Of a stretch of DNA of 42,850 bases, positions 1,080-42,325 are shown one piece after another. A model generated the notes under the pieces. The model was not told where the DNA came from, did not search any database, and saw only the letters and a program-made list of their open reading frames with translations. How positions within the stretch are numbered: the stretch's first letter is position 1; every line of letters begins with the position of its first letter. Source of the DNA: a virus; UHGV virus genome UHGV-0182515; one strand, written 5' to 3'. The position numbers and the translations under genes are program-made.

Positions 1080-1280
1080 TTACCCATTGGCGCGGCTTAA
1101 GAGCTTATTTTTGAATTCACAATGGTCACGATATAACCATCTTGCTCGCCCGTGGATAACTTTGGCTTTTGGCAGGTCGCCGGACTTAATCCGGTCGTAG
1201 ATGAAGGTTTTACCAAAGCCAGTATCGGCCATGATGAATTTCAAATCAACCAGTGAATCAGGCTGTAGTTCGTGTTGCAT
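1080..1280 (-). CDS. torI: Excisionase / recombination directionality factor, TorI/AlpA-like (66 aa)
   Basis: 66-aa protein MQHELQPDSLVDLKFIMADTGFGKTFIYDRIKSGDLPKAKVIHGRARWLYRDHCEFKNKLLSRANG, recognised as TorI/AlpA family; sits at the prophage end opposite the integrase. Confidence 0.75.
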   Translation of the reverse strand: MQHELQPDSLVDLKFIMADTGFGKTFIYDRIKSGDLPKAKVIHGRARWLYRDHCEFKNKLLSRANG

Positions 1281-2742: not shown

Positions 2743-3566
2743 TTTGCCTCCTGCGGCGGTTCTGGTAGCGGCATCCAGTGTGACGGTTTCCACGACGCAC
2801 CAGGAATTATCCAACCATCATTAGCGTCAGGATGCCCCGGTATGTAAGTCGCCCATTTCATTCGCCAGTCACCTTTCCTATCAAACTCCTTGGCAACAAG
2901 AACAGCTGTTTTGCTATCCGGCATTCGCTCACTACAGCTTATCCAACCATCCGGAGTTACCGGATAGTTGACAGCCAGTCTGCGCAAAACAGCCTTAACA
3001 CCCTCAATACGGTCATCATCACAATTTTCCAGCGTATCTATGCGGTCGAGCATGATGATGGCGTTATCAATATCAGGATTGCCAGTCCACTCATTGCCGC
3101 GTACTGGTTGATTCTCGGCTTTACCCAGTCTGTCGTCGCTGCATGAACGCCCTTCCAGCCAGGCCAATGCTTGTCGCATGAAATACGCAATATGTTTGCC
3201 GTGGTAATCGTCTTCATCTATGTGAAAAGCGATACTGCGAATGTATTCAATTGCATTTTCAATAGCCTCCAACGCTATCGGCGCTGGCGGCACAGCGAAT
3301 AGATATCCGCCAAAATCAGGAAGCTCTCCAATGGCCTGTACGAACTTTTGTTTGCCTACGTCAATTCCTAATGGGTAGTGAGCTATAATCTTTGCCACTG
3401 GCTCTGCTTCCAGCGATGCCAGCGTAATTTCAGCCAGCTTGAGGTGAATAACCGCCGCATCATAAGCGCCTGGGACTCTTTCCACCGCAACGCGAAGAAC
3501 CTCAATATTCTTCTTAGCCTGCTCAATCAACTGCTCTTTGGTGAACTCTTTGGTAATCGTGATCAT
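2739..3566 (-). CDS. DUF551-domain protein (275 aa)
   Basis: C-terminal W/P-rich segment ...SHWMPLPEPP typical of DUF551 proteins found in lambdoid early regions. Confidence 0.5.
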   Translation of the reverse strand: MITITKEFTKEQLIEQAKKNIEVLRVAVERVPGAYDAAVIHLKLAEITLASLEAEPVAKIIAHYPLGIDVGKQKFVQAIGELPDFGGYLFAVPPAPIALEAIENAIEYIRSIAFHIDEDDYHGKHIAYFMRQALAWLEGRSCSDDRLGKAENQPVRGNEWTGNPDIDNAIIMLDRIDTLENCDDDRIEGVKAVLRRLAVNYPVTPDGWISCSERMPDSKTAVLVAKEFDRKGDWRMKWATYIPGHPDANDGWIIPGASWKPSHWMPLPEPPQEAK

Positions 3567-4078
3567 GCCGCGTTTCCTTCTTTCTTATTAACAATTACAC
3601 CGTCATATATTTCATTAAGGTGCCCTCTCAACTCCATGCGCCTTAATGCAGATAACATGTAATCGCATTCAACCTGCTTATTTCCAGTAAATGGCTTATC
3701 GTCAGGATTACCCCAACAGCAATTACCCTTGGGCCACCCATGTACTTTCCGTACTCTTCCGTTAACAACGTGAAGTAATCCCCAGCCGGGAGGTAAATCC
3801 TCAATTGAAATAATTCCCGGCTCACTAATAAAGAATCGCCAGTCGCCCATTCCAAAAGACGGATTTTTACGGAAACGCTTTTTTCTATCTGCCAACAAGT
3901 CAGCACGAGAACACTTCGCCTCTATCAGGCATGATGCTGAATTTCTGAATCCCATAGCATCTGGCTGTTCTCCGGTACTGGTTACAGCTATAAAGCGGTC
4001 ATGAAAATAAACCTTGAACCCGTTGCGCTTAAGGAACTTGTACGCAATCTGACAGAGTTCGCTGTGTGTTAACGCCAT
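3563..4078 (-). CDS. Putative PD-(D/E)xK-fold nuclease-like protein
   Basis: Motif ..QPDAMGF..(13 aa)..LIEAK fits a PD-x(n)-ExK core; the family assignment is an inference from that motif only. Confidence 0.35.
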   Translation of the reverse strand: MALTHSELCQIAYKFLKRNGFKVYFHDRFIAVTSTGEQPDAMGFRNSASCLIEAKCSRADLLADRKKRFRKNPSFGMGDWRFFISEPGIISIEDLPPGWGLLHVVNGRVRKVHGWPKGNCCWGNPDDKPFTGNKQVECDYMLSALRRMELRGHLNEIYDGVIVNKKEGNAA

Positions 4079-4079
4079 A

Positions 4080-4487
4080 TCACTCTCCTTTGATGCGAAT
4101 GCCAGTAGCGCGGATTGCATCGATGACTTCAGAAACTTTGTATGCCATTACCGTTTGGTAATCATCGTGAAAATCTGTTCGATGAAGCATGCTGCTACGT
4201 TCCGGGAGCGATATTTCCCGCGCTTCCAGTTCTGCAATGCGCTTTTTTGCTGCTTCCAGTTCATCCAGTAATTCCAGCACGGTAGCCGGATTAGCCTTGG
4301 CAACAAAATCCCGGACTGGCTTACAATCAATCTCCGCAATGGGTTGATACGATGTGTAGCCATGCTGTCTTGTATAACTACCGTGACGAATAACGAAAAA
4401 ATCACCATTTATTTTTTTAGCCTGCCACTTATCTTCACCGGCTTTCTCTGCCGCTTCACGCAGTGCCTGATAGTCAATCTTGCTCAC
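4080..4487 (-). CDS. Hypothetical coiled-coil protein; probable GTG start
   Basis: AAGGAGG Shine-Dalgarno lies 6 nt upstream of a GTG at 4487-4485; the longer ATG-initiated ORF (to 4679) would overlap the Lar-like gene by about 200 bp. Confidence 0.45.
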   Translation of the reverse strand: MSKIDYQALREAAEKAGEDKWQAKKINGDFFVIRHGSYTRQHGYTSYQPIAEIDCKPVRDFVAKANPATVLELLDELEAAKKRIAELEAREISLPERSSMLHRTDFHDDYQTVMAYKVSEVIDAIRATGIRIKGE

Positions 4488-4707
4488 TGGTTGCCTCCTT
4501 TGCTCGCTGATTCCACTCTGCTCTAACCTCTGAATAAAAAATCGCGCAGTCATTTCCAGGCGCTGCATATTTGCTACCAGATTGAGCGCGACACGTACCG
4601 CATCGAACGAAATAGAATCGACCGCCAGAGCCATATTCAGGGTGATCTGCTTCGCTGGCAACGTGCGCTGCACCGCCACAGAATGGACATGGTAGTAGGT
4701 TGCTCAT
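4474..4707 (-). CDS. Lar-family restriction alleviation protein
   Basis: [12 protein letters not shown]....CGTC zinc-ribbon pattern characteristic of Lar-like proteins of lambdoid prophages. Confidence 0.55.
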   Translation of the reverse strand: MSNLLPCPFCGGAAHVASEADHPEYGSGGRFYFVRCGTCRAQSGSKYAAPGNDCAIFYSEVRAEWNQRAKEATSEQD

Positions 4708-5141
4708 GAATGCACTCCCTTGTGAAGCTGTTCCGCACAATGCAGCAGGGCGTCAGTCGCCTCTTTCACCGTAACGCAGTCGCCATCGTCCAGCCCGGAC
4801 ACCGACGCGTGCTTAACGAACGCCGCGCAAAGGTCATCAAACGCCTTAGCCCGGACTTCAGTCAGGAAAGCATCGGTGGCCGGGGTTTTGCAGGACATTT
4901 GAATTGCCTTCTCTGTGTATAAAACACCCGTTCGATTGGCGGTATACATGATGGTGTTTACAGCATCTTGATGTGCTGATTTCACAGCCTCAACTTCAGC
5001 AGCCAGCGCCGCGCACTTGGCCTCCGCTTCAGCAAATTTACGCACCAGATATTCAGCGTTTGTTTCGTTAACCTTTAAATCTCGTGGGATGCATTTACCT
5101 TTCAGAAAACCATCCATCTCAATTAGTGACATTTGTTTCAT
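4704..5141 (-). CDS. Hypothetical phage early protein
   Basis: ORF in the early operon; ATGA overlap with the upstream small gene. Confidence 0.4.
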
Positions 5142-5302
5142 TTTTTCCCACTCCGCCACATCGCATTCAGATATTTGTTTTGATTCACTGATGGAAAAGA
5201 ATTTCTCTTAAGCAATTCCTCTCTCGATGGCATTGGCTTTACGCGTTGGCGAATAATCATTTCTGCCGGAAGAATGCCGGGATTGTATGCAAGTCCTCTC
5301 AT
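5138..5302 (-). CDS. Small hypothetical protein (about 54 aa)
   Basis: Short ORF filling the gap; the start was chosen to avoid overlap with the upstream gene. Confidence 0.25.
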
Positions 5303-5312
5303 GGTAAATTCC

Positions 5313-5606
5313 TCAGTCATTACTGATAGCGCCATAGCGTGAGCGGTAATTACGCAGGCGCGGGTCAATTTCAGGGAAGTGGGTATATGTGGCTTTGCGG
5401 AATGGTCGGATTGATGTCTGGTAAATTCGCTCGCGTTCTTCTTTCTCTGCAAGCCATATACAATGGCGAAATTCCTTTTCCTCTTTCGTTTCCTGCGGTA
5501 GCGACATTATCCGGTCGTAGTTTTTCCTGAATTTATCCAGCACCTCCGATACGGAATTGCCGGAACAGCGGCGCGCGTCATCCGCACCATACAGAGGCGC
5601 TGGCAT
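5313..5606 (-). CDS. Hypothetical phage early protein (97 aa)
   Basis: ORF in the early operon; no recognisable domain. Confidence 0.4.
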
Positions 5607-5622: not shown

Positions 5623-6171
5623 TTATTTAGCTAACTTTTTCCAGATCGCTGAAACGTATTTGGCTTGGTGAATGGCATCATCAAGAGCGTTGTGGCGAGT
5701 TCCTTTGAATGGCATATCTCGCTTAGGGTCGAATCCTATTACCTTTCCAAGCTCGACGATTGTTCTTACGTCGCGGTCATTCCACCACTGCCACGGAACT
5801 GGCTGCCCTGTCAGCGAATAACTGTTTCGGAGAATAACGCAGTCAAATGATGCTCCATTCCCCCAAACCTGAACGAATTTGTGGTTAGCGTTCTTTATGA
5901 TGAATTCAGATAACCATGAAAGAGCCGTTGAAAGCTCCTGAGTGTTGCTGGTTAGCGATTTTCTGGCTTCTTCACTCTGTTCCATCCACCATAAAATCGT
6001 TGAAGCGTCAGGACGCGCTCGATATCGCATTGATGACTCAAGCGAGATATTTACCGAGAACTCTTCTCCTGTTTCTCCGGTATTCGGGTCAAAGAATACC
6101 GCCCCAATAGAAATAACTGGCGCGTATGGCCCGTTGCCTATTGTTTCAAGGTCAACCATCAAGTGATTCAT
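5623..6171 (-). CDS. DEDDh-family 3'-5' exonuclease
   Basis: MVDLETIG (Asp/Glu motif I) and H.ALDDA (motif III with His) are present in the translation. Confidence 0.65.
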   Translation of the reverse strand: MNHLMVDLETIGNGPYAPVISIGAVFFDPNTGETGEEFSVNISLESSMRYRARPDASTILWWMEQSEEARKSLTSNTQELSTALSWLSEFIIKNANHKFVQVWGNGASFDCVILRNSYSLTGQPVPWQWWNDRDVRTIVELGKVIGFDPKRDMPFKGTRHNALDDAIHQAKYVSAIWKKLAK

Positions 6172-6179
6172 GTAAGTCC

Positions 6180-6695
6180 TTAAATTGCGTGAATAGCGTG
6201 ACGAGGGAAAGGGAGAGTTACTGGTGCAAAGGGGATATCGTCGTCAAAATCCATAGGTGGTTCGCTGTGATTTCCCTGCTGCTGAGGTTGCTGTCTTTGT
6301 TGCTGACCATTATTTCGCTGAGGTGAAGACTGTTCATTGCCTCCTTGCTTGCCACCAAGCATTTGCATGGTTCCACCAACTCCCACGATGACTTCGGTAG
6401 TGAACCGATCCTGTCCGCTTTGATCCTGCCATTTTCTTGTCCGCAATTTGCCTTCAAGATAAACCTCAGAGCCTTTTCGCAGATATTCGCTGGCAATTTC
6501 TGCCAGTTTCCCGCTCATTACCACGCGGTGCCACTCCGTCTGCTCCTTTTGCTCTCCAGTTTTCTTATCACGCCATTGTTCTGACGTAGCAACGGTAAGG
6601 TTTGCAAATGCCGTTCCTGATGGTGAATATCTGATTTCTGGATCATGCCCAAGGCGACCAATAATGATCACCTTATTTACGCCTCTGCTTGCCAT
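6180..6695 (-). CDS. ssb: Single-stranded DNA-binding protein (phage SSB) with a C-terminal extension
   Basis: N-terminal OB-fold region [16 protein letters not shown].., Gly/Gln-rich linker, and the acidic MDFDDDIPF motif followed by 15 additional residues before the stop. Confidence 0.85.
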
Positions 6696-7403
6696 TTATG
6701 CCGCCTGTTTTAGTTCGTTAACTCTGATGTTCATTACCTGAACGCATTTAGCCTGCGCCTCCTCGTTGCCAGCCATTAATTGCCAGTCACGCTGATAACG
6801 CTCGATGAGTTTTTTCTTGTCAGTTTCTGTCGCTGCATAATCGCTGAAGTCTTTCAGGATTTGTTCGCAGTCAACCGATGGAGATTTCTGGTTGGTATTT
6901 TCTGGTGATGGTTTGTTATCTGATGCTGGGATTGCCCATCCCGGAAGTGATGGAGGGAGCCAGTAAAATCCTGTTCCATCCTTCAGTTTTGCCCTGTGCC
7001 ACCCCTGCTTTTTATCGAGAGATGTTTGTGCGAAACCTTCCTCAAGGTTATACAGATACCTACCGATTCCCCACTGAACGGCAGCGCGCTTCATTGCACC
7101 GGAACGACCACCTTTGACGGCTTCTACCTGCGTGTTTTCAGCAGCATCCCATTTGGTTACCCATTCGGAATCAATCTTTATTGATATGCCGCATTCAACG
7201 CCGCCGTTGTTGGGAATATCGCGGTATTCATTGCGCCATCCTGCTTTGCCGCAAACATCGTCCAGGCGTTTCATGATTGCCCTGTTCGTGACATAAGCCA
7301 GCACCATAGCCCACACCTTTCCATCGCGTGTTTTACCGCTTTGCTGTATTCGCCATTCGATATCTTCAGGGCTGAATGGCTCATCGAATTTGTTCAAATC
7401 CAT
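6696..7403 (-). CDS. Rad52-like single-strand annealing protein
   Basis: Sits where a recombinase is expected next to ssb; the N-terminal region shows the Rad52/Sak-like pattern (..AYVTNRAIMKRLDDVCGKAGWRNEY..). Confidence 0.5.
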   Translation of the reverse strand: MDLNKFDEPFSPEDIEWRIQQSGKTRDGKVWAMVLAYVTNRAIMKRLDDVCGKAGWRNEYRDIPNNGGVECGISIKIDSEWVTKWDAAENTQVEAVKGGRSGAMKRAAVQWGIGRYLYNLEEGFAQTSLDKKQGWHRAKLKDGTGFYWLPPSLPGWAIPASDNKPSPENTNQKSPSVDCEQILKDFSDYAATETDKKKLIERYQRDWQLMAGNEEAQAKCVQVMNIRVNELKQAA

Positions 7404-7502
7404 AATTCACCTCAGAATGGACACGGCCCAAGGAAATAACGCTGATTTAATACTTCGACTCGGGACAAATTAAGGCATACCCGCATTCCTTCGCGGTCGC
7501 CA

Positions 7503-7661
7503 TTATGGCGATACCAGAGAGCTTTCTGCGTGTACATGCGCCTCTGTAACTTGCTCTCCTTCACTGTGGTTGCAAGTGACATGAATATCTCCTTCGTTAC
7601 CGATTAATTCTTTCATCTGACGAATGAATTCTTCGTCTGAACAGTTATCTGTAAAACTCAT
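7503..7661 (-). CDS. Small hypothetical protein in the kil position
   Basis: ATGA overlap with the cIII stop; Cys- and His-containing acidic peptide. Confidence 0.35.
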   Translation of the reverse strand: MSFTDNCSDEEFIRQMKELIGNEGDIHVTCNHSEGEQVTEAHVHAESSLVSP

Positions 7662-7828
7662 GGACGGCCTTGTTGTTTCAAAATATCCCAAATCTTTTCG
7701 AGCAAACTTTTCATTCTTGGTTGTTTAAAGTCTGCTCCGGTTAAAATATTTTTTCGTGAATGCTGTACCGATAAAATCGGGTTGAAAGGGCGAACCGATG
7801 CCGCCCCTGCAATAGCGAACTGTTGCAT
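7658..7828 (-). CDS. cIII: CIII-like FtsH inhibitor
   Basis: MQQFAIAG...LLEKIWDILKQQGRP resembles lambda CIII (MQYAIAG...LIDILNQPG); AAGGAG lies 6 nt upstream of the ATG. Confidence 0.7.
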   Translation of the reverse strand: MQQFAIAGAASVRPFNPILSVQHSRKNILTGADFKQPRMKSLLEKIWDILKQQGRP

Positions 7829-14014: not shown

Positions 14015-14187
14015 GACGACAGCGACGAAGTATCACCGACATCATCTGCGAAAACTGCAAATACCTTCCAACGAAGCGCTCCAGAAATAAACGCAAGCCA
14101 ATCCCAAAAGAATCTGACGTAAAAACCTTCAACTACACGGCTCACCTGTGGGATATCCGGTGGCTAAGACATCGTGCGAGGAAATGA
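14011..14187 (+). CDS. ninE: NinE-like small basic protein
   Basis: ATGA overlap with the ninB stop; [23 protein letters not shown].. recalled as NinE-like. Confidence 0.55.
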
Positions 14188-14189
14188 CG

Positions 14190-15134
14190 ATGACTGCGTA
14201 TTACAACGAAATAGATCCGTATGCAGCGCAATGGCTGCGTAACTTAATTGACGCTGGAGAAATTGCCCCCGGTTATGTAGATGAAAGGAGTATTGAAGAT
14301 GTCACACCAGGTGATTTGCGAGGATTTACCCAGCACCACTTTTTTGCAGGAATCGGAGTTTGGAGCTATGCACTTAGAAAAGCAGGATGGCCAGACAACA
14401 AGAGTATCTGGACAGGAAGTTGCCCATGCCAACCTTTCAGCTCGGCAGGCAAAGGAAAAGGGGTTGATGACGAGCGGCACTTATGGCCGGCATTCTTCTG
14501 GCTTATTGAAAAATGCAATCCTGGCATCGTTATTGGCGAACAGGTTGCAAGCGCAGACGGCCTCGCTTGGCTCGACCTTGTACAAACTGACTTGGAAGGT
14601 GCGAACTACACCTCTGCAGGTACCGATATTTGCGCTGCGGGCTTCGGTTCTCCGCACATTAGGCAGCGATTGTATTGGGTGGCCTACTCCAACGACAAAT
14701 ATCAACTTTCAGCCAGAGACGCGCAGGGGAATTCAGAACCTATCTGGATGCGTGAGACTAGCGGGATGGCAAACTCCTTTAGCGAACGATGCAACAGGTT
14801 CAACGCATTGCTACAGCGGAAAAGACAAGAGCGGAACCCCAAGAATCTGCTTGAAACTTCCCGGGACGGTGAAGCTATGTACCCATTACCGGTTAACGGC
14901 TTCTGGAGAGATGCAGACTGGCTTTACTGTAGAGATGAAAAATATCGTCCAGTTAGACCCGGCTCATTCCCGATGGTTAATGGCATTGCCAAAAGCTTGG
15001 GACGAGGCAAGTCCACACTGGGAAGAATGGCAAAGCGCAATCAAGATCAGCGAATTATTGGATATGGAAACGCAATCAATGCAGAAGTAGCAACGGCATT
15101 CGTGAAAGTTTGTATGGAGGTTGTTAATGCTTAG
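14190..15134 (+). CDS. DNA (cytosine-5)-methyltransferase, orphan
   Basis: Motif I FFAGIGVW, motif IV PCQPFSSAG (catalytic Cys), motif VIII RQR and motif X GYGNAI are present; GEQV sits where ENV is expected. No adjacent restriction endonuclease gene. Confidence 0.7.
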   Translation: MTAYYNEIDPYAAQWLRNLIDAGEIAPGYVDERSIEDVTPGDLRGFTQHHFFAGIGVWSYALRKAGWPDNKSIWTGSCPCQPFSSAGKGKGVDDERHLWPAFFWLIEKCNPGIVIGEQVASADGLAWLDLVQTDLEGANYTSAGTDICAAGFGSPHIRQRLYWVAYSNDKYQLSARDAQGNSEPIWMRETSGMANSFSERCNRFNALLQRKRQERNPKNLLETSRDGEAMYPLPVNGFWRDADWLYCRDEKYRPVRPGSFPMVNGIAKSLGRGKSTLGRMAKRNQDQRIIGYGNAINAEVATAFVKVCMEVVNA

Positions 15135-15303
15135 CCCATCCCAATCCATTCAATACCAGAAAGAAAGCGTCGAGCGGGCTTTAACGTGCGCTAACTGCGG
15201 TCAGAAGCTGCATGTGCTGGAAGTTCACGTGTGTGAGCACTGCTGTGCAGAACTGATGAGCGATCCGAATAGCTCAATGTACGAGGAAGAAGACGATGAA
15301 TGA
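15127..15303 (+). CDS. ninF: NinF-like protein
   Basis: MLSPSQSIQYQKESVERALTCANCGQKLHVLEVHVCEHCCAELMSDPNSS.. resembles lambda NinF. Confidence 0.7.
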   Translation: MLSPSQSIQYQKESVERALTCANCGQKLHVLEVHVCEHCCAELMSDPNSSMYEEEDDE

Positions 15304-15508
15304 TTACCTGAAATGGTATCTCTACCACCGCTGGTTAATTAAGTTTGCTGTAAAAGACTGGATGACAGCGGATGCCAACAAGCTTAAGCAAAGAAAAGAC
15401 TATTACTACGCCAGAATGAAGGAAAACTACTGCTCAATTCGCACTCGCATATTTATTAAAAAAGACCTTCAGTCAATTCTTCAATTGCGAGGGAAGGTAA
15501 ATGGCTAA
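15296..15508 (+). CDS. Hypothetical nin-region protein
   Basis: ORF coupled by ATGA overlap to ninF. Confidence 0.4.
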   Translation: MNDYLKWYLYHRWLIKFAVKDWMTADANKLKQRKDYYYARMKENYCSIRTRIFIKKDLQSILQLRGKVNG

Positions 15509-15791
15509 CCTACGCAAAGAAGCGCGCGGAAGAGAATGCCAGGTACGTATTTACGGCGTATGCAATGGTAATCCTGAAACTACAGTTCTGGCACATTACC
15601 GGATGGCTGGAATTTGCGGAACGGGAATGAAGCCTGACGACCTGATCTGCGCATGGGCTTGTAGTGACTGCCACGCGGAGATCGACCGACGCACCCGGAT
15701 TCTCGACAACAAAGACGCCAGACTTTACCACCTCGAAGGCGTGATCAGGACGCAGGCGATACTGCTGAAGGAGGGGAAGATTAAGCCATGA
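15501..15791 (+). CDS. YbcO-like (DUF1364) protein
   Basis: RGRECQVRIYGVCNGNPETTVLAHYR...CSDCHAEIDRR matches the Cys/His pattern of DLP12 YbcO-type proteins. Confidence 0.6.
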   Translation: MANLRKEARGRECQVRIYGVCNGNPETTVLAHYRMAGICGTGMKPDDLICAWACSDCHAEIDRRTRILDNKDARLYHLEGVIRTQAILLKEGKIKP

Positions 15792-16150: not shown

Positions 16151-16335
16151 ACGCCACAATTCAAACGATACCAGAGCTTCTTATCCAGACACGAGGCAAT
16201 CAGACCGAAGTGGCGAGGATGCTTTCCTGCGCAAGAGGAACAGTGCTCAAGTACAACCGAGACAGCAAAGGTGAGCGTCACGTAATAGTTAACGGCGTCC
16301 TGATGGTCAAACAGGGCAAGAGGGGTAGACCATGA
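16147..16335 (+). CDS. ninH: NinH-like protein
   Basis: ..GNQTEVARMLSCARGTVLKY... resembles lambda NinH (GNQTEVARRLKCSRGTVRKY). Confidence 0.65.
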   Translation: MNATIQTIPELLIQTRGNQTEVARMLSCARGTVLKYNRDSKGERHVIVNGVLMVKQGKRGRP

Positions 16336-16955
16336 GACTCGAAAGTGTAGCTAAATTTCATTCGCCAAAAAGCCCGATGATGAGTGACTCACCACGGGCC
16401 ACGGCGTCTGACTCTCTTTCCGGTACTGATGTGATGGCTGCTATGGGGATGGCACAATCACAAGCCGGATTCGGAATGGCTGCATTCTGCGGTAAGCATG
16501 AACTCAGCCAGAACGACAAACAAAAGGCTATCAACTATCTGATGCAATTTGCACACAAGGTATCGGGGAAATACCGTGGTGTGGCAAAGCTCGAAGGAAA
16601 TACTAAGGCAAAGGTACTGCAAGTGCTCGCAACATTCGCTTATGCGGATTATTGCCGTAGTGCCGCGACGCCGGGCGCAAGATGCAGAGATTGCCACGGT
16701 ACAGGCCGTGCGGTTGATATAGCCAAAACAGAGCAGTGGGGGAGAGTTGTTGAGAAAGAATGCGGAAGATGCAAAGGTGTCGGCTATTCAAGAATGCCAG
16801 CAAGCGCCGCATATCGCGCTGTAACGATGCTAATCCCAAACCTTACTCAACCCACCTGGTCACGCACTGTTAAGCCGCTGTATGACTCTCTGGTGGTGCA
16901 ATGCCACAAAGAAGAGTCAATCGCAGACAACATATTGAATGCGGTCACACGTTAG
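16332..16955 (+). CDS. Q: Late-gene antiterminator Q
   Basis: MRLESVAKFHSPKSPMMSDSPRATASD... with a Cys-rich zinc site; essentially lambda Q. Confidence 0.9.
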   Translation: MRLESVAKFHSPKSPMMSDSPRATASDSLSGTDVMAAMGMAQSQAGFGMAAFCGKHELSQNDKQKAINYLMQFAHKVSGKYRGVAKLEGNTKAKVLQVLATFAYADYCRSAATPGARCRDCHGTGRAVDIAKTEQWGRVVEKECGRCKGVGYSRMPASAAYRAVTMLIPNLTQPTWSRTVKPLYDSLVVQCHKEESIADNILNAVTR

Positions 16956-39923: not shown

Positions 39924-41081
39924 TCACTCCACCTTCTCATCAATCCAGTCCGCCCACCACTGCATCATCTCCCTGCGCTTATCGAGATATTGCGCATGGT
40001 TGTAAATACCGCGCACAGATCCGCCGTTGGCATGTGCCAGTTGCACTTCAATAGCATCAGCAGGCCATTCGTGCTCGTTCATAATCGTGCTGAATTCATG
40101 CCTGAATCCGTGACCGCTTTCCAGCCCTTCATAGCCAATTTGTTTGATCACAAGCAATACCGCGTTCTCGCAGATTGGCTTCTTCTTATCGTTGCGCCCG
40201 GCAAAAACAAACTCTGACACTGGTTTAGTGATTGAGCTTAGCGTAGTGAGAAGTTCAATCACCTGGTCTGACATAGGAACCACATGAATTTTTCGCCCCT
40301 TCATCACACTGGCGTCGATGGTGATAATCCTGTTTTCAAAATCGACGTTCTTCCATTGCATGGAACGAAGCTCTTTCGTTCTTAGGGCTGTGTAGCGTAA
40401 AACTTTGGTCGCAATGAGCGATACGATGCTTCCTGAAAATGTTGCCAGTGCTTTGTTGAATGCAGGGATCTGGTCTGCTGGAAGAAACGGGAAGTTCTTC
40501 TTGCGGTATCCTTTCATGGCGTCTGCAAGGTCAGGTGCCGGGTTATATTTAGCCCTTCCGGTGACAATAGCGTAACGAAAAACCTCGCCGCATCTTCTGC
40601 GGGCTTTGTTGGCTCGCTCCATTGCACCGCGATCTTCAAATCTGCGGATTACTTCCAGCAGTTGCATCGGCTCAATATCCTGAATCTCAAGACCGCCGAT
40701 GATGGGTAAAATGTCGTCATCAAACATTTTGGCAAGTTCAGTTGCATAGCCTACTGACCAGACTTGCTTCTTGTGCTCGTACCATTCCTTGTAAATCGCA
40801 CTAAAGGAATTGTTGTTAGACGAAGCCTTTTTCGCTTTTACCGGATCGATGCCAACCGAGATGTCTTTCCTCGCAGTCCATGCTTTATCCCTTGCCTCCT
40901 GCAAAGTCATAAGCGGATATTTTCCTACGGTCAGGATTTTCTCCTTACCGTCAATCTTGTAGCGAAGCTGCCATACCTTTTTCCCTGACACAGGGACATA
41001 AAGGTACAGGCCATTACCATCGAGTAGGCGGTATGGTTTTTCTTTCGGCTTTGCTGCTTCAATCTGCTTAACGGTGAGCAT
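39924..41081 (-). CDS. intS: Tyrosine integrase, IntS/P4 family (ATG at 41081; an upstream GTG at 41117 is also in frame)
   Basis: C-terminal catalytic region ...HGFRHEFSTIMNE...LAHANGGSVRGIYNHAQY (catalytic Tyr) and N-terminus MLTVKQIEAAKPKEKPYRL..; adjacent to the tRNA. Confidence 0.9.
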   Translation of the reverse strand: MLTVKQIEAAKPKEKPYRLLDGNGLYLYVPVSGKKVWQLRYKIDGKEKILTVGKYPLMTLQEARDKAWTARKDISVGIDPVKAKKASSNNNSFSAIYKEWYEHKKQVWSVGYATELAKMFDDDILPIIGGLEIQDIEPMQLLEVIRRFEDRGAMERANKARRRCGEVFRYAIVTGRAKYNPAPDLADAMKGYRKKNFPFLPADQIPAFNKALATFSGSIVSLIATKVLRYTALRTKELRSMQWKNVDFENRIITIDASVMKGRKIHVVPMSDQVIELLTTLSSITKPVSEFVFAGRNDKKKPICENAVLLVIKQIGYEGLESGHGFRHEFSTIMNEHEWPADAIEVQLAHANGGSVRGIYNHAQYLDKRREMMQWWADWIDEKVE

Positions 41082-41243
41082 GGGTAAAAATCCGGTGGGT
41101 AAAATTATTTTATCCACTTTTTACCCGTCATGGAGTGCGGCTGTCAACGATCTGACGTGAACCATTACGAACTGTAAATCTACGGAAGGCTTGATATTCA
41201 GGGGATTTTGCGGACTGCTACGGATGGGAGCGAACTGATAAAT

Positions 41244-41258
41244 GGTGTCCCCTGCAGG
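41244..41258. repeat. attL core candidate (15 bp, identical to 992-1006), the 3' end of argW
   Basis: Exact direct repeat read from the sequence. Confidence 0.6.
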
Positions 41259-41318
41259 AATCGAACCTGCAATTAGCCCTTAGGAGGGGCTCGTTATATC
41301 CATTTAACTAAGAGGACA
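41244..41318 (-). tRNA. argW: tRNA-Arg (anticodon CCU)
   Basis: Reverse complement GTCCTCTTAGTTAAATGGATATAACGAGCCCCTCCTAAGGGCTAATTGCAGGTTCGATTCCTGCAGGGGACACCA folds as a cloverleaf with 7-bp acceptor stem, T-loop GGTTCGATTCC, anticodon loop CUCCUAA and CCA end. Confidence 0.85.
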
Positions 41319-41392
41319 ATGCGGCATGAGTATACCCGCTAATGGACTACGGGGTAAGTACACAGCCGCTCGATTGCTTAAACCCTCGCCAT

Positions 41393-42325
41393 TTATGCCG
41401 GGTTTTTATCATTTTTCTTAATGTTTTCCGCACGTTCTGCTTTTTGACGTGCTTCTACTTTGCGCTTGTTGCTCATGTCGTTACGAATCTGTGCATGACT
41501 CATTAACGCGAAGATAAAGGTGCCGCCGCAGATGTTCCCCGCTAAAGTAGGTAGTGCGAAGGGCCAGATGAAATCGCTCCAGTGCAGCGTACCGTTAAAC
41601 ACCAGATAGAGGATTTCTACAGAACCGACAACGATGTGGGTGGTGTCACCCAGGGCAATAAGCCAGGTCATCAATATAATCACCACAATCTTTGCCGCAC
41701 CCGCTGCAGGAAACATCCATACCATAGTGGCGATCAGCCAGCCGGAAATGATCGCGTTGGCAAACATCTCGCTGGGGGTGTTCTTCATCACATCCATGCC
41801 GATTTTGACAAATGCATCGCGAGTTTCTTCATTGAAGATAGGCATATATTCAAATGCCCACGCAGCAATACCTGTCCCGATAATATTACCCAGCAGCACG
41901 ATGCCCCATAACCGCATAAGTAAGCCGACGTTGCTCATTGTCGGTTTTTGCATGACGGGTAGTACCGCAGTTACAGTGTTTTCGGTAAATAATTGCTGGC
42001 GGGCCATTATGACGATAATAAAACCAAAGGTATAACCGAGATTCTCCAGCAAGAAGCTGCCCGGCACGCCTTCCAGTTCGACATGAAATATCCCTTTTGC
42101 CAGTAGCGAAGCGCCCATCGACAGGCCCGCCGCAATGGCTGACCACAGTAGCGCCATTGCGTCGCGTTCCAGCTCTTTTTCACCATCCTGGCGGATATGC
42201 TCATGAATTGCCATCGCCCGGGAGGGGAGTCGGTCTTCATCTATTTCTATTTTTTTACCGCGCTCTTTTTCTTCGCTCTCAACTTCAATTTCGTCGCTGT
42301 GTTGATCAATTTTGTCGTTGTCCAT
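41393..42325 (-). CDS. yfdC: Inner-membrane protein of the formate/nitrite transporter family (YfdC-like), host gene
   Basis: 310-aa polytopic membrane protein, recognised as YfdC by sequence and by its position next to argW. Confidence 0.75.
   Translation of the reverse strand: MDNDKIDQHSDEIEVESEEKERGKKIEIDEDRLPSRAMAIHEHIRQDGEKELERDAMALLWSAIAAGLSMGASLLAKGIFHVELEGVPGSFLLENLGYTFGFIIVIMARQQLFTENTVTAVLPVMQKPTMSNVGLLMRLWGIVLLGNIIGTGIAAWAFEYMPIFNEETRDAFVKIGMDVMKNTPSEMFANAIISGWLIATMVWMFPAAGAAKIVVIILMTWLIALGDTTHIVVGSVEILYLVFNGTLHWSDFIWPFALPTLAGNICGGTFIFALMSHAQIRNDMSNKRKVEARQKAERAENIKKNDKNPA

Follow-up and report, generated by a model that had tools for sequence, protein, structure and literature searches.

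The analysed stretch of 42,850 nucleotides, called the window here, is a P22-like prophage of E. coli FDAARGOS_1256, to whose record it is 100% identical, and among its P22-like genes are those for a P22-type capsid, a portal, gp4/gp10 and a tailspike as well as an ant/arc region. Its early-left (pL) operon contains a tightly packed group of minus-strand genes coding for an annealase, an SSB and a DEDDh exonuclease (Table 1). A first-pass annotation made from the letters alone had proposed these three open reading frames together with their identities, and Pfam profiles confirmed all of them. The genes follow each other head to tail: the stop codon TAA of the annealase gene abuts the ATG of ssb, and a gap of 8 nt follows between ssb and the exonuclease gene; the two junctions read TAA-ATG and TAAGGA-N6-ATG. 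Within the module no excess of promoters or terminators was found, which supports co-transcription, and terminator-like hairpins are located just upstream of the cIII homolog (7918-7901 and 7880-7861). This homolog flanks the three genes on one side, whereas abc2, Ea22-like and DUF551 genes and torI (xis-like) lie on the other. The pL slot is the one in which lambda has gam-bet-exo, so that the proposed placement in the position of lambda red was correct. The description of the module as three genes stood for those three, but the span given for it left out a fourth, abc2, whose product matches PF11043 with E = 5.6e-63 and is 93% identical to P22 Abc2 over 97 aa. The DUF2737 gene is a conserved neighbour downstream of abc2.

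Table 1. Features of the recombination module and its borders (positions in the window).
Feature	Position	Strand	Remarks
DUF2737 protein, P22 orf56 homolog	5138..5302	-	75% identity to P22 orf56; DUF2737 according to PGAP
Abc2 anti-RecBCD protein	5313..5606	-	97 aa; PF11043, PHROG 656
DEDDh 3'-5' exonuclease, DexA/Rv2179c-like (predicted)	5623..6171	-	182 aa; between ssb and abc2
SSB	6180..6695	-	171 aa; tip 6228-6251, extension 6183-6227
Annealase (predicted chimera)	6696..7403	-	235 aa; residues 1-159 = 6927-7403, residues 178-235 = 6699-6872
56-aa ORF in P22 arf position	7412..7582	-	PHROG 1723, E = 9e-36; PHROG 2123, E = 1e-39
cIII homolog, upstream edge of module	7658..7828	-	PHROG 550 'CIII', E = 5.7e-22

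Directly upstream of the annealase gene, a 56-aa ORF left unannotated by PGAP in the FDAARGOS_1256 genome overlaps a second small ORF (7503-7691). The two PHROG families that it matches are both labelled 'recombinase', a label without tested function. Neither of the two small ORFs shows significant similarity to P22 Arf or Kil, and no window ORF compared is significantly similar to P22 Arf or Abc1, both of which are non-essential proteins (PMC12315714).

Exo, RecE, RecT, Bet and Gam are annotated nowhere in the prophage, and the module proteins matched neither Gam nor Beta/RecT-type annealase nor 5'-3' Exo (YqaJ/RecE type) families. Very probably the genes serve homologous recombination as the 'Rec' module of a prophage that is P22-like, packages by headful and sits at argW; almost all lambdoid phages with this type of packaging retain such a module (PMC12315714). 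This arrangement is already known. RefSeq gives the three genes of E. coli FDAARGOS_1256 exactly these names, and the module type is catalogued in a 2025 survey of 325 lambdoid phages (PMC12315714), so that the finding as stated adds nothing new. What is new here are details: the chimeric make-up of the annealase, the membership of the exonuclease in the DexA family and its status as an optional cassette, and a 15-residue tail on the SSB.

A chimeric annealase and an SSB with a tail

A profile search placed the 235-aa protein in the Rad52 family, as the first-pass annotation had suggested: residues 4-136 match positions 7-153 of the 153-position Pfam profile Rad52_Rad22 (PF04098) with E = 5e-26 and 91.9 bits, the gathering cutoff being 20.3. 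The characterised ul36 protein Sak aligns to residues 6-159 (59% identity over 155 residues, E = 3e-66); P22 Erf aligns by BLASTP, through its residues 134-205, to residues 157-235 (65% identity, E = 3e-30). With P22 Erf, BLASTP aligned only annealase residues 157-235 and nothing to the N-terminal domain of Erf; also, the Pfam Erf profile gave no match to the annealase at E<=0.01. In the AF2 model (pLDDT 82), residues 163-176 form a low-confidence linker and the C-terminal domain is modelled as a three-helix bundle (residues 179-234). When this model was compared with the PDB by Foldseek, the 18 best matches were all Mgm101, human RAD52 or 80alpha Sak (probability 0.97-1.00, E = 3e-4 to 6e-3), with TM-scores that were modest (0.2-0.5), as the C-terminal domain was included in the model. 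Sequence searches of the PDB with the annealase, as a single sequence and as a profile of 69 sequences, found no Rad52-family structure; the family was reached by Pfam profile and fold search only. The earlier description as a Rad52-like annealase thus applies to the N-terminal 160 residues but not to the C-terminal domain, which is that of P22 Erf. Judged by these alignments, the protein is a chimera of a Sak (ul36) Rad52-fold N-terminal domain and a P22 Erf C-terminal domain, and it is from the latter that the 'Erf' labels in PHROG and GenBank stem. The annealase allele occurs in 392 of 5426 complete E. coli genomes, and the order in which ssb follows Sak is kept as far as Lactococcus phage ul36. 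A natural annealase with a swapped C-terminal domain, accompanied by its cognate SSB, represents the type of combination that governs the transfer of recombineering between hosts.

The SSB matched the Pfam SSB profile (PF00436) with E = 3.7e-38 and consists of an OB domain followed by a Gln/Gly-rich linker. In the PDB, residues 1-142 match solved enterobacterial SSB chains at E of about 1e-66, among them E. coli SSB (E = 7e-66). The acidic tip DFDDDIPF occupies residues 149-156, and F156 is the last residue covered by all NCBIfam SSB profiles that extend to the C-terminal tip. In a canonical tip, DDDIPF ends the protein and leaves the Phe carboxylate free, whereas in the window SSB 15 more residues (157-171) come after it. 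The term 'extended SSB', used in the first-pass annotation, is therefore not appropriate for overall length (171 aa versus 178 aa in E. coli SSB) but does describe the 15 residues beyond DFDDDIPF. This extension is conserved at the protein level in distant phages, with the consensus AP-[VI]-[GT]-L-[PQ]-[FY]-[PG]-[RK]-x-[AF]-[IM]-[HY]-x-I-COOH, and the peptide is kept in SSB-like proteins of E. coli, Vibrio, Providencia and Vequintavirinae. A Klebsiella Vequintavirinae SSB-like-tail protein of about 400 aa has the same tip and extension as the window SSB, and in Sf6 the extension peptide is borne by an HNH nuclease instead of an SSB. A literature search on the extension strings returned no paper describing a motif beyond the SSB tip. 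The undescribed tail is the only part of the finding that goes beyond the ordinary. It could hide the canonical tip from the SSB interactome of the host, or it could bring in a specific partner; the core of the peptide, P-V-T-L-P-F, presumably resembles hexapeptide beta-clamp-binding motifs. The extension could in this way change which host proteins the phage SSB engages, including ExoI, lately tied to the triggering of RT-based defence.

Family, distribution and possible role of the exonuclease

The exonuclease matched the full Pfam profile of Rv2179c-like 3'-5' exonucleases (PF16473; residues 2-177 against positions 1-177 of 177) with E = 8.9e-73 and 244 bits. Of 113 aligned homologs, 111-113 share the DEDDh residues D7, E9, D110, H160 and D165, in line with the original assignment as a DnaQ-like DEDDh exonuclease. 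In the PDB the only sequence matches were 8kel/8ken (E = 2.5e-13), which have been identified as T4 DexA structures (PMC12153337). In the alignment, D7 and E9 fall on the D7/E9 pair of DexA and D110 falls on its D119, while DexA D169 aligns to F146 with D147 adjacent to it. The equivalent of DexA W152 is present as W130, and the position of DexA D90 falls in an alignment gap. Identity to T4-like dexA genes is about 30%, and thousands of phage relatives are dexA genes; among the best 120 of 3781 homologs no domain fusion was found, all being single-domain proteins of 120-294 aa. The protein thus appears to be a member of the T4 DexA family, and 3'-5' polarity would follow from its fold. Since the Pfam family is named after the 3'-5' exoribonuclease Rv2179c of M. 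tuberculosis and several RefSeq/PHROG labels read 'exoribonuclease', the enzyme might be thought to act on RNA primers or transcripts rather than on DNA. However, the structures reached by sequence were those of the DNase T4 DexA only, Rv2179c was not matched in the PDB search at E<=0.01, the phage relatives are dexA genes, and the literature searched yielded nothing of relevance on Rv2179c in phages. DNA is favoured as the probable substrate, given that the search reached DexA and not Rv2179c, and action on RNA seems very improbable to us.

The exonuclease allele was found in 152 of the 5426 complete E. coli genomes, about 39% of those with the annealase allele, and about 60% of the modules with the same annealase lack it. 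The gene is an optional cassette between ssb and abc2. In HK75 an otherwise identical module is without the exonuclease, abc2 following ssb directly at an exact intergenic junction, and in Sf6 an HNH gene takes its place; the ssb-abc2 slot of ES18 also houses an unrelated HNH gene. In other phages, relatives of the exonuclease follow SSB or annealase genes that are not homologous to one another: Rad52-SSB1 in Pectobacterium, Sak4-SSB2 in Providencia, an extended-tail SSB1 in Vibrio phage 1.106.O and a Gp2.5-like SSB/annealase in Klebsiella phage VLCpiM12a. In four of ten sampled contexts the exonuclease gene stands alone by int/xis or near nucleotide-metabolism genes, away from any annealase or SSB, a pattern that is also stated in PMC12315714.

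It is conceivable, if rather doubtful, that the SSB extension is an undescribed portable docking motif and, separately, that ssb and the DexA-like exonuclease gene make up a mobile two-gene unit that joins unrelated annealase systems. The annealase partners of the proposed unit are Sak, Sak4 or none, and the exonuclease follows Gp2.5-like SSBs too. Co-occurrence of the extension with the exonuclease was considered and rejected: HK75 has the extension only, in Pectobacterium the exonuclease goes with a plain tip, and both are missing from ES18.

With regard to mechanism, Abc2 would bind host RecBCD and make it a Chi-independent enzyme resecting the 5' strand, as inferred from characterised homologs; in the part of PMC5928155 that cites Murphy (2000), Abc2 is said to turn RecBCD into an exonuclease of 5'-3' polarity, which readies ends for recombination. 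Because Abc2 would redirect RecBCD, no nuclease of the lambda-Exo or RecE type would be needed. The phage SSB would then coat the exposed 3' single strands and the annealase would anneal complementary strands, the Erf C-terminal domain probably being the part that docks to a partner; for HK620, stimulation of the annealase by its cognate SSB has been described (PMC5928155). Annealing would close the injected genome, which is terminally redundant, into a circle; it would also sustain recombination-dependent replication and promote mosaic exchange.

The first-pass annotation had found it unclear how an exonuclease of the polarity opposite to lambda Exo could serve recombination. Opposite polarity is indeed what the DEDDh fold implies, but the puzzle is largely removed by abc2, because RecBCD modified by Abc2, rather than the 3'-5' exonuclease, would carry out the resection. 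The location beside the annealase in the red region could nevertheless suggest that the enzyme is the functional counterpart of lambda Exo and produces the substrate of the annealase. A 3'-5' enzyme would, however, destroy the very strand on which the annealase depends, about 60% of modules that are otherwise identical do without the gene, and Abc2 would supply resection via RecBCD. On the grounds of polarity, dispensability and the presence of Abc2 this reading was rejected, and we give it practically no chance; the exonuclease is not the resection nuclease.

Our best guess, which we hold tentatively and at somewhat less than even chances, is that the exonuclease is an add-on after ssb that would trim 3' ssDNA ends or heterologous 3' tails on SSB-covered DNA. 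An analogous SSB-linked 3'-5' exonuclease exists in the host, namely ExoI. T4 DexA, a 3'-5' DNase, acts preferentially on ssDNA and is known to take part in intron homing (PMC12153337). Several points count against trimming. Exonucleases acting 3'-5' on ssDNA usually reduce recombination, since they remove the 3' end that would invade (PMC12315714), and 3' flaps are not obviously made when terminal repeats anneal for circularisation. The contexts in which the exonuclease stands alone, together with the roughly 60% of modules without it, argue against an obligatory role in recombination, and for a more distant E. coli homolog a published experiment gives a role in defence against T4 (PMC12153337).

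The lone contexts are what would be expected if the enzyme scavenged nucleotides or degraded DNA, as is also documented for T4 DexA, and if its gene were a free-standing early-operon cassette for which the site beside ssb is an insertion hotspot. In a Salmonella/Citrobacter clade of roughly 60% identity the gene is found close to int, together with a dNMP phosphatase-like gene (PHROG 318) and without annealase or SSB, and in Vibrio phage 1.106.O the exonuclease gene is followed by genes for a Mre11/SbcD-like nuclease and for nucleoside deoxyribosyltransferase-like and dNTP pyrophosphohydrolase-like proteins. The unrelated HNH genes in the ssb-abc2 slots of Sf6 and ES18 fit a hotspot as well. 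Scavenging is unlikely all the same: the carriers are temperate lambdoid phages without known degradation of host DNA for precursors, and a single hotspot is hard to credit when the gene comes right after four different SSB/annealase types.

Defence experiments on the E. coli DexA homolog EcD raise the question whether the window protein is an 'HREX' nuclease for competition between phages, digesting cytosine-modified T-even-like DNA and sparing unmodified DNA. EcD is without the D90 tetramer contact, shows no activity on unmodified dsDNA but digests T4 DNA, and protects cells from T4 (PMC12153337). An HREX enzyme would lose D90, keep the modified-base contacts W152 and D169 and digest hmC DNA selectively; the window protein has its D90 position in a gap and retains the tryptophan corresponding to W152, and at the position of D169 it has F146, next to D147. 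Yet EcD is another protein and more distantly related. The primers used to clone it encode MIDTET... and ...TIPETYD, so that N- and C-terminus differ; identity of the window protein with EcD is thereby ruled out and the experiment is not directly transferable. Moreover, a gene in the repressed pL operon without a promoter signal of its own would hardly be expressed in the lysogen, and the adjacency to the SSB would stay unexplained. PADLOC gave only a weak generic match of the exonuclease to CRISPR-associated DEDDh proteins (E = 3.8e-4) and no defence-system match for the SSB, the annealase or Abc2. All in all, such a competition role has a poor chance of being correct. The close relatives of the exonuclease that were sampled are prophage or phage genes. 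Their origin bears on a conflict between two papers of 2025 that read this exonuclease family in incompatible ways, as a member of Rec modules (PMC12315714) or as a 'bacterial' anti-T4 defence nuclease (PMC12153337); the latter paper never mentions prophages.

The opposite direction, counter-defence, was also considered. When phage SSBs disturb ExoI/SbcB, an exonuclease encoded beside ssb might restore the degradation of ssDNA or cDNA made by defence systems and so keep their sensors silent. SbcB suppresses DRT10, and a Vequintavirus SSB-like protein with FDDDIPF is needed as the trigger (bioRxiv 10.64898/2026.04.29.721553); the Klebsiella Vequintavirinae protein that matches this description carries the tip and extension of the window SSB. 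The linkage of ssb and exonuclease across unrelated modules would be in agreement with such a function. The chain is one of inference only, however, and many phages with such SSBs, HK75 for instance, lack the exonuclease, so that we regard counter-defence as decidedly improbable. The module reading and the trimming role of the exonuclease, taken together as one explanation, are in our compromise estimate reasonably probable.

Comparison with known recombination systems

Lambda Red resembles the module of the window in position and overall purpose, with a Rad52-superfamily annealase and neutralised RecBCD in common. It differs in that the window has no Gam, no Beta/RecT-type annealase and no 5'-3' Exo, has an SSB and a 3'-5' exonuclease in addition, and would redirect RecBCD rather than block it. 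The Sak of phage ul36 shares the annealing domain (59% identity over 155 residues) and has an ssb gene directly next to it as in the window, but ul36 Sak has its own C-terminal domain instead of the Erf type, the SSB of ul36, at only 30% identity, ends in a plain DDDLPF, and there is neither abc2 nor an exonuclease gene. The order annealase-SSB-Abc2 recurs in the Sak4-SSB-Abc2 module of HK620, whose SSB stimulates annealing through its C-terminal residues (PMC5928155). However, the HK620 annealase is a RecA-core ATPase and its SSB belongs to a non-homologous type. Providencia prophages have the same DEDDh exonuclease after a Sak4-SSB2 pair.

With T4 DexA the window exonuclease has the DEDDh family, the catalytic residues and the W152-equivalent tryptophan in common. 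At about 30% identity it is shorter (182 aa versus 227 aa), without the extra loops and the D90 contact, and, unlike T4, its carrier is a temperate phage with unmodified DNA. E. coli SSB and ExoI (SbcB), a DEDDh 3'-5' ssDNA exonuclease that works with SSB, offer a functional analogy only, the window exonuclease not being an ExoI ortholog. As the tip of the window SSB is not C-terminal, the canonical reading of the free Phe carboxylate by ExoI may not apply to it.

P22 itself, with arf-erf-abc1-abc2, is like the window in operon position, in Abc2 (93%), in orf56/DUF2737 (75%) and in the Erf C-terminus (65%), and both modules would rely on Abc2 to hijack RecBCD, in place of a 5'-3' exonuclease of the phage. 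In contrast to P22, the N-terminal domain of the window annealase is of the Sak type and not of the Erf type, ssb and the exonuclease gene occupy the position of abc1, and homologs of Arf and Abc1 are lacking. The same four genes in the same order are present in the Rec modules of epsilon34, mEpX2, mEp235 and g341c. Modules of the epsilon34 type constitute the 'ES18 functional type' (anti-RecBCD + SSB + nuclease + SAP), and the DnaQ-type nuclease of epsilon34 was named as a likely Rec-module member in the 2025 Genome Research survey of 325 lambdoid phages (PMC12315714). Compared with these four, the module of the window is 85-92% identical in DNA and 93-99.6% in annealase protein, its SSB tail is identical, and the differences are allelic only.

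The recombination module and its prophage

Three minus-strand ORFs were found exactly where the first-pass annotation had predicted a Rad52-family annealing protein, a phage SSB and a DnaQ-like exonuclease, and profile searches placed the 235-aa protein in Rad52_Rad22 and its two neighbors in the SSB and, by a full-length match, the DEDDh 3'-5' exonuclease families. The SSB also aligned at E about 1e-66 with enterobacterial SSB chains of known structure, that of E. coli among them. As had also been proposed, the module occupies the lambda red position (exo-bet-gam): N and a cIII homolog lie on its upstream side, and Ea22-like and DUF551 genes and torI on its downstream side. The annealase TAA directly abuts the ssb ATG, and 8 nt separate ssb from the exonuclease gene, with the ssb stop codon forming part of a TAAGGA Shine-Dalgarno sequence. 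Promoter-like and terminator-like sites over the module stretch did not exceed their frequency in shuffled sequence, and the scan gave none between the module genes.

Coordinates and profile matches of features in the window
Feature	Position	Strand	Match or remark
torI	1080-1280		TorI excisionase-like, end opposite integrase
185-aa ORF, intact	3563-4120	minus	PHROG 9263/631, nearly full length
Lar-family restriction-alleviation gene	4474-4707
abc2	5313-5606	minus	PF11043, E=5.6e-63; 93% identity to P22 Abc2
Exonuclease, 182 aa	5623-6171	minus	full-length match to the Rv2179c-like DEDDh 3'-5' exonuclease family, E=8.9e-73
SSB, 171 aa	6180-6695	minus	SSB profile, E=3.7e-38
SSB tail, 15 residues	6183-6227	minus	follows tip DFDDDIPF (149-156), where NCBIfam SSB profiles reaching the tip end
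Annealase, 235 aa	6696-7403	minus	Pfam Rad52_Rad22, E=5e-26, 91.9 bits (cutoff 20.3)
Overlapping small ORFs, 56 and 62 aa, different frames	7412-7582, 7503-7691	minus	PHROGs 1723 and 2123
NinB, Orf-family mediator	14027-14437		nin region
DNA cytosine methyltransferase	14613-15557		nin region
RusA resolvase	16211-16573		nin region
intS	40257-41414		integrase
tRNA-Arg	41576-41650		argW attachment site

The annealase is a domain chimera. Residues 6-159 share 59% identity (E=3e-66) with the prototype of phage Rad52 homologs, Sak from Lactococcus phage ul36, and residues 157-235 share 65% identity (E=3e-30) with the P22 Erf C-terminal domain, which explains why database labels vary between Rad52, Erf and recombinase. 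The Pfam Erf profile did not match the annealase, so that the 'Erf' label often given in GenBank and PHROGs reflects the C-terminal domain only. In an AlphaFold2 model (pLDDT 82), a beta-sheet/helix N-domain and a three-helix C-domain are joined by a disordered linker (163-176), and the best PDB fold matches were all of the Rad52 family (yeast Mgm101, human RAD52 and Sak of staphylococcal phage 80alpha; probability 0.97-1.00). Such a chimera fits the remark that partner-interaction domains are shuffled between annealases (PMC12315714). In ul36, too, ssb directly follows sak. Just upstream of the annealase, where P22 has arf/kil, lie two small ORFs that RefSeq leaves unannotated in the FDAARGOS_1256 genome; their PHROGs both carry the label 'recombinase', a putative assignment, and neither ORF showed significant similarity to P22 Arf or Kil.

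The window holds a complete P22-like prophage at argW. Its capsid, portal, gp4/gp10, tail needle and tailspike are of P22 type, and an ant/arc region is present. Integration is at tRNA-Arg, with intS at one prophage end and torI at the other, which we take to be the arrangement of the K-12 KplE1/CPS-53 element. NinB and RusA represent further recombination functions in the same prophage, and a low-GC stretch (34-40 kb) covers the tailspike, an HNH-motif gene and the ant/arc immunity region. A prophage in E. coli FDAARGOS_1256 (NZ_CP069451.1) matches the window at 100% identity, and RefSeq lists there a 'Rad52/Rad22 family DNA repair protein', 'ssb', '3'-5' exonuclease' and 'phage anti-RecBCD protein'. 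The intact ORF at 3563-4120 may reflect an annotation discrepancy, as RefSeq gives there only a short 'frameshifted' pseudogene (window about 3900-4078). The same module is present in phages mEpX2, mEp235, epsilon34 and g341c, and a 2025 survey of 325 lambdoid phages sorted Rec modules into SSB, nuclease, annealase and anti-RecBCD functions (PMC12315714). The arrangement was therefore already known, and the module is both annotated and published.

A C-terminal peptide beyond the SSB tip

The SSB had been described as extended, and indeed 15 residues follow the canonical tip; all NCBIfam SSB profiles extending as far as the tip end at F156. An identical tail is found in the SSBs of HK75, mEpX2 and epsilon34. 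Three further proteins terminate in diverged versions of it that show many synonymous and conservative changes (loci L016, L017 and L018): the SSB of Vibrio phage 1.106.O, a short and divergent SSB from Providencia phage PSTNGR2lys (ending ...EDDIPFAPIGLPYPRHAIYVI) and a 406-aa protein with an SSB-like tail from the Klebsiella Vequintavirinae phage VLCpiM5a (L018 1364-2584; PHROG 4477, unlabelled function). This pattern of divergence indicates selection on the peptide. In Sf6 (L022 1257-1736) the insertion of an HNH gene falls precisely on the IPF|AP junction, so that the SSB ends ...DDSDIPF-stop and the HNH protein carries the tail at its own C-terminus; the peptide thus behaves as a C-terminal module that is portable between proteins. 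Coverage of the tail query reached at least 80% in 129 phage records and in 68 plasmid records, most of the latter phage-like. The extension is absent from the ES18 and Pectobacterium SSBs, and its presence does not track that of the exonuclease.

A literature search found no paper mentioning the motif. For E. coli SSB, binding to partners is generally considered to need a free C-terminal Phe, and the tail may thus change the set of proteins that the phage SSB contacts. Its P-V-T-L-P-F segment presumably resembles hexapeptide beta-clamp-binding motifs. The tail peptide is the one feature that might repay follow-up.

Bas52_0087, an SSB-like protein of ~400 aa with an FDDDIPF motif, was reported as the trigger of DRT10 defence (bioRxiv 10.64898/2026.04.29.721553). 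The VLCpiM5a protein fits this description; FDDDIPF is called the 'C-terminal tip' in that report, and in the Klebsiella relative 15 more residues follow it. The report also prompted the idea that the exonuclease serves counter-defence, replacing ExoI activity perturbed by phage SSBs, which we consider improbable.

An optional DexA-like exonuclease

A PDB sequence search with the exonuclease reached only 8kel and 8ken (E=2.5e-13), whose chain matches the residue numbers D119, W152 and D169 in a 2025 NAR paper on crystal structures of T4 exonuclease A (DexA; PMC12153337). T4-like dexA genes are ~30% identical to the window gene. Relatives occur in 1864 phage records, and catalytic D7, E9, D110, H160 and D165 are kept in 111-113 of 113 homologs. 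A role as an RNase is very improbable. The gene is optional: of 5426 complete E. coli genomes, 392 carry the annealase allele, 152 the exonuclease allele and 147 the entire 3-kb block. HK75 has no exonuclease gene, abc2 following ssb directly, and this junction shows that the cassette is inserted precisely after the ssb stop codon and before the ribosome-binding site of abc2. Unrelated HNH genes fill the same slot in Sf6 and ES18.

Ten genomic contexts of exonuclease relatives were sampled. In six, the gene lies beside, or at most one gene from, an SSB-type gene of several unrelated families: Rad52-SSB-exonuclease in the window and, without abc2, in a Pectobacterium prophage; Sak4, HK620-type SSB and exonuclease in Providencia prophages; SSB, exonuclease and Mre11/SbcD-like nuclease, with no annealase, in Vibrio phage 1.106.O; Gp2.5-like SSB/annealase, exonuclease and DNA polymerase in Klebsiella phage VLCpiM12a; and exonuclease, DUF2800 protein and OB-fold protein in Vibrio phage 1.094.O. 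That the gene repeatedly follows SSBs with no homology to one another makes the best case, albeit an indirect one, for a function on SSB-coated ssDNA. The other four contexts have the exonuclease alone near int/xis, in a ~60%-identity Salmonella/Citrobacter clade (also with a dNMP-phosphatase-like gene), Yersinia phage YeP1 and Vibrio phage K231, an int-proximal placement likewise reported for such nucleases (PMC12315714). These solitary copies show that SSB linkage is not obligatory; that the enzyme scavenges nucleotides, or is a free cassette, is unlikely.

'Bacterial' DexA homologs have been framed as host defence (HREX) with prophages unmentioned (PMC12153337); the close relatives sampled here (L003-L015) lie in prophage early-left operons or phage genomes. 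An anti-T-even defence role, as reported for the more distant E. coli homolog EcD, appears slightly less likely again than scavenging, as the EcD primers encode a different protein and the repressed pL operon, with no promoter of the gene's own, disfavours expression in a lysogen.

Abc2 and the polarity of resection

The first-pass annotation was correct but incomplete: it found the role of a 3'-5' exonuclease unclear, since its polarity is opposite to that of lambda Exo, and overlooked the next gene, abc2, which is followed by a P22 orf56 homolog. According to a passage in PMC5928155 citing Murphy 2000, Abc2 makes RecBCD a 5'-3' exonuclease that prepares ends for recombination; it binds RecC and blocks the Chi response (PMC12315714). 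No gene for Exo, RecE, Bet, RecT or Gam is annotated anywhere in the prophage, which together with Abc2 makes the module P22-type, not lambda-type. Delegation of resection to RecBCD mostly answers the polarity puzzle: the exonuclease need not, and by polarity cannot, be an Exo counterpart, and an analog of lambda Exo is hardly conceivable. Chi (GCTGGTGG) has 0 sites on either strand of the whole window (1-42850), against a random expectation of about 0.65 per strand and a far higher number at the density seen in E. coli; this agrees with the few Chi sites reported in lambdoid phages encoding an anti-RecBCD protein (PMC12315714).

Judging from close homology to characterized proteins, Abc2-modified RecBCD would very probably resect 5' strands, the phage SSB coat the 3' strands and the Sak/Erf chimera anneal them. 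Annealing would serve to circularize the headful genome with its terminal redundancy, to support recombination-dependent replication and to allow exchange with prophages related to this one. More tentatively, the DexA-like enzyme might be an accessory nuclease trimming 3' ends, by analogy with the host SSB-ExoI pair and with the documented role of DexA in T4 intron homing (PMC12153337). The survey of lambdoid phages lists DnaQ-like 3'-5' nucleases within Rec modules, comments that enzymes of this kind 'curiously, usually inhibit homologous recombination', and cites the epsilon34 nuclease gene as a likely genuine Rec-module member (PMC12315714). In contrast to lambda Red, resection in this prophage would, by homology to P22 Abc2, be outsourced to the hijacked host RecBCD.
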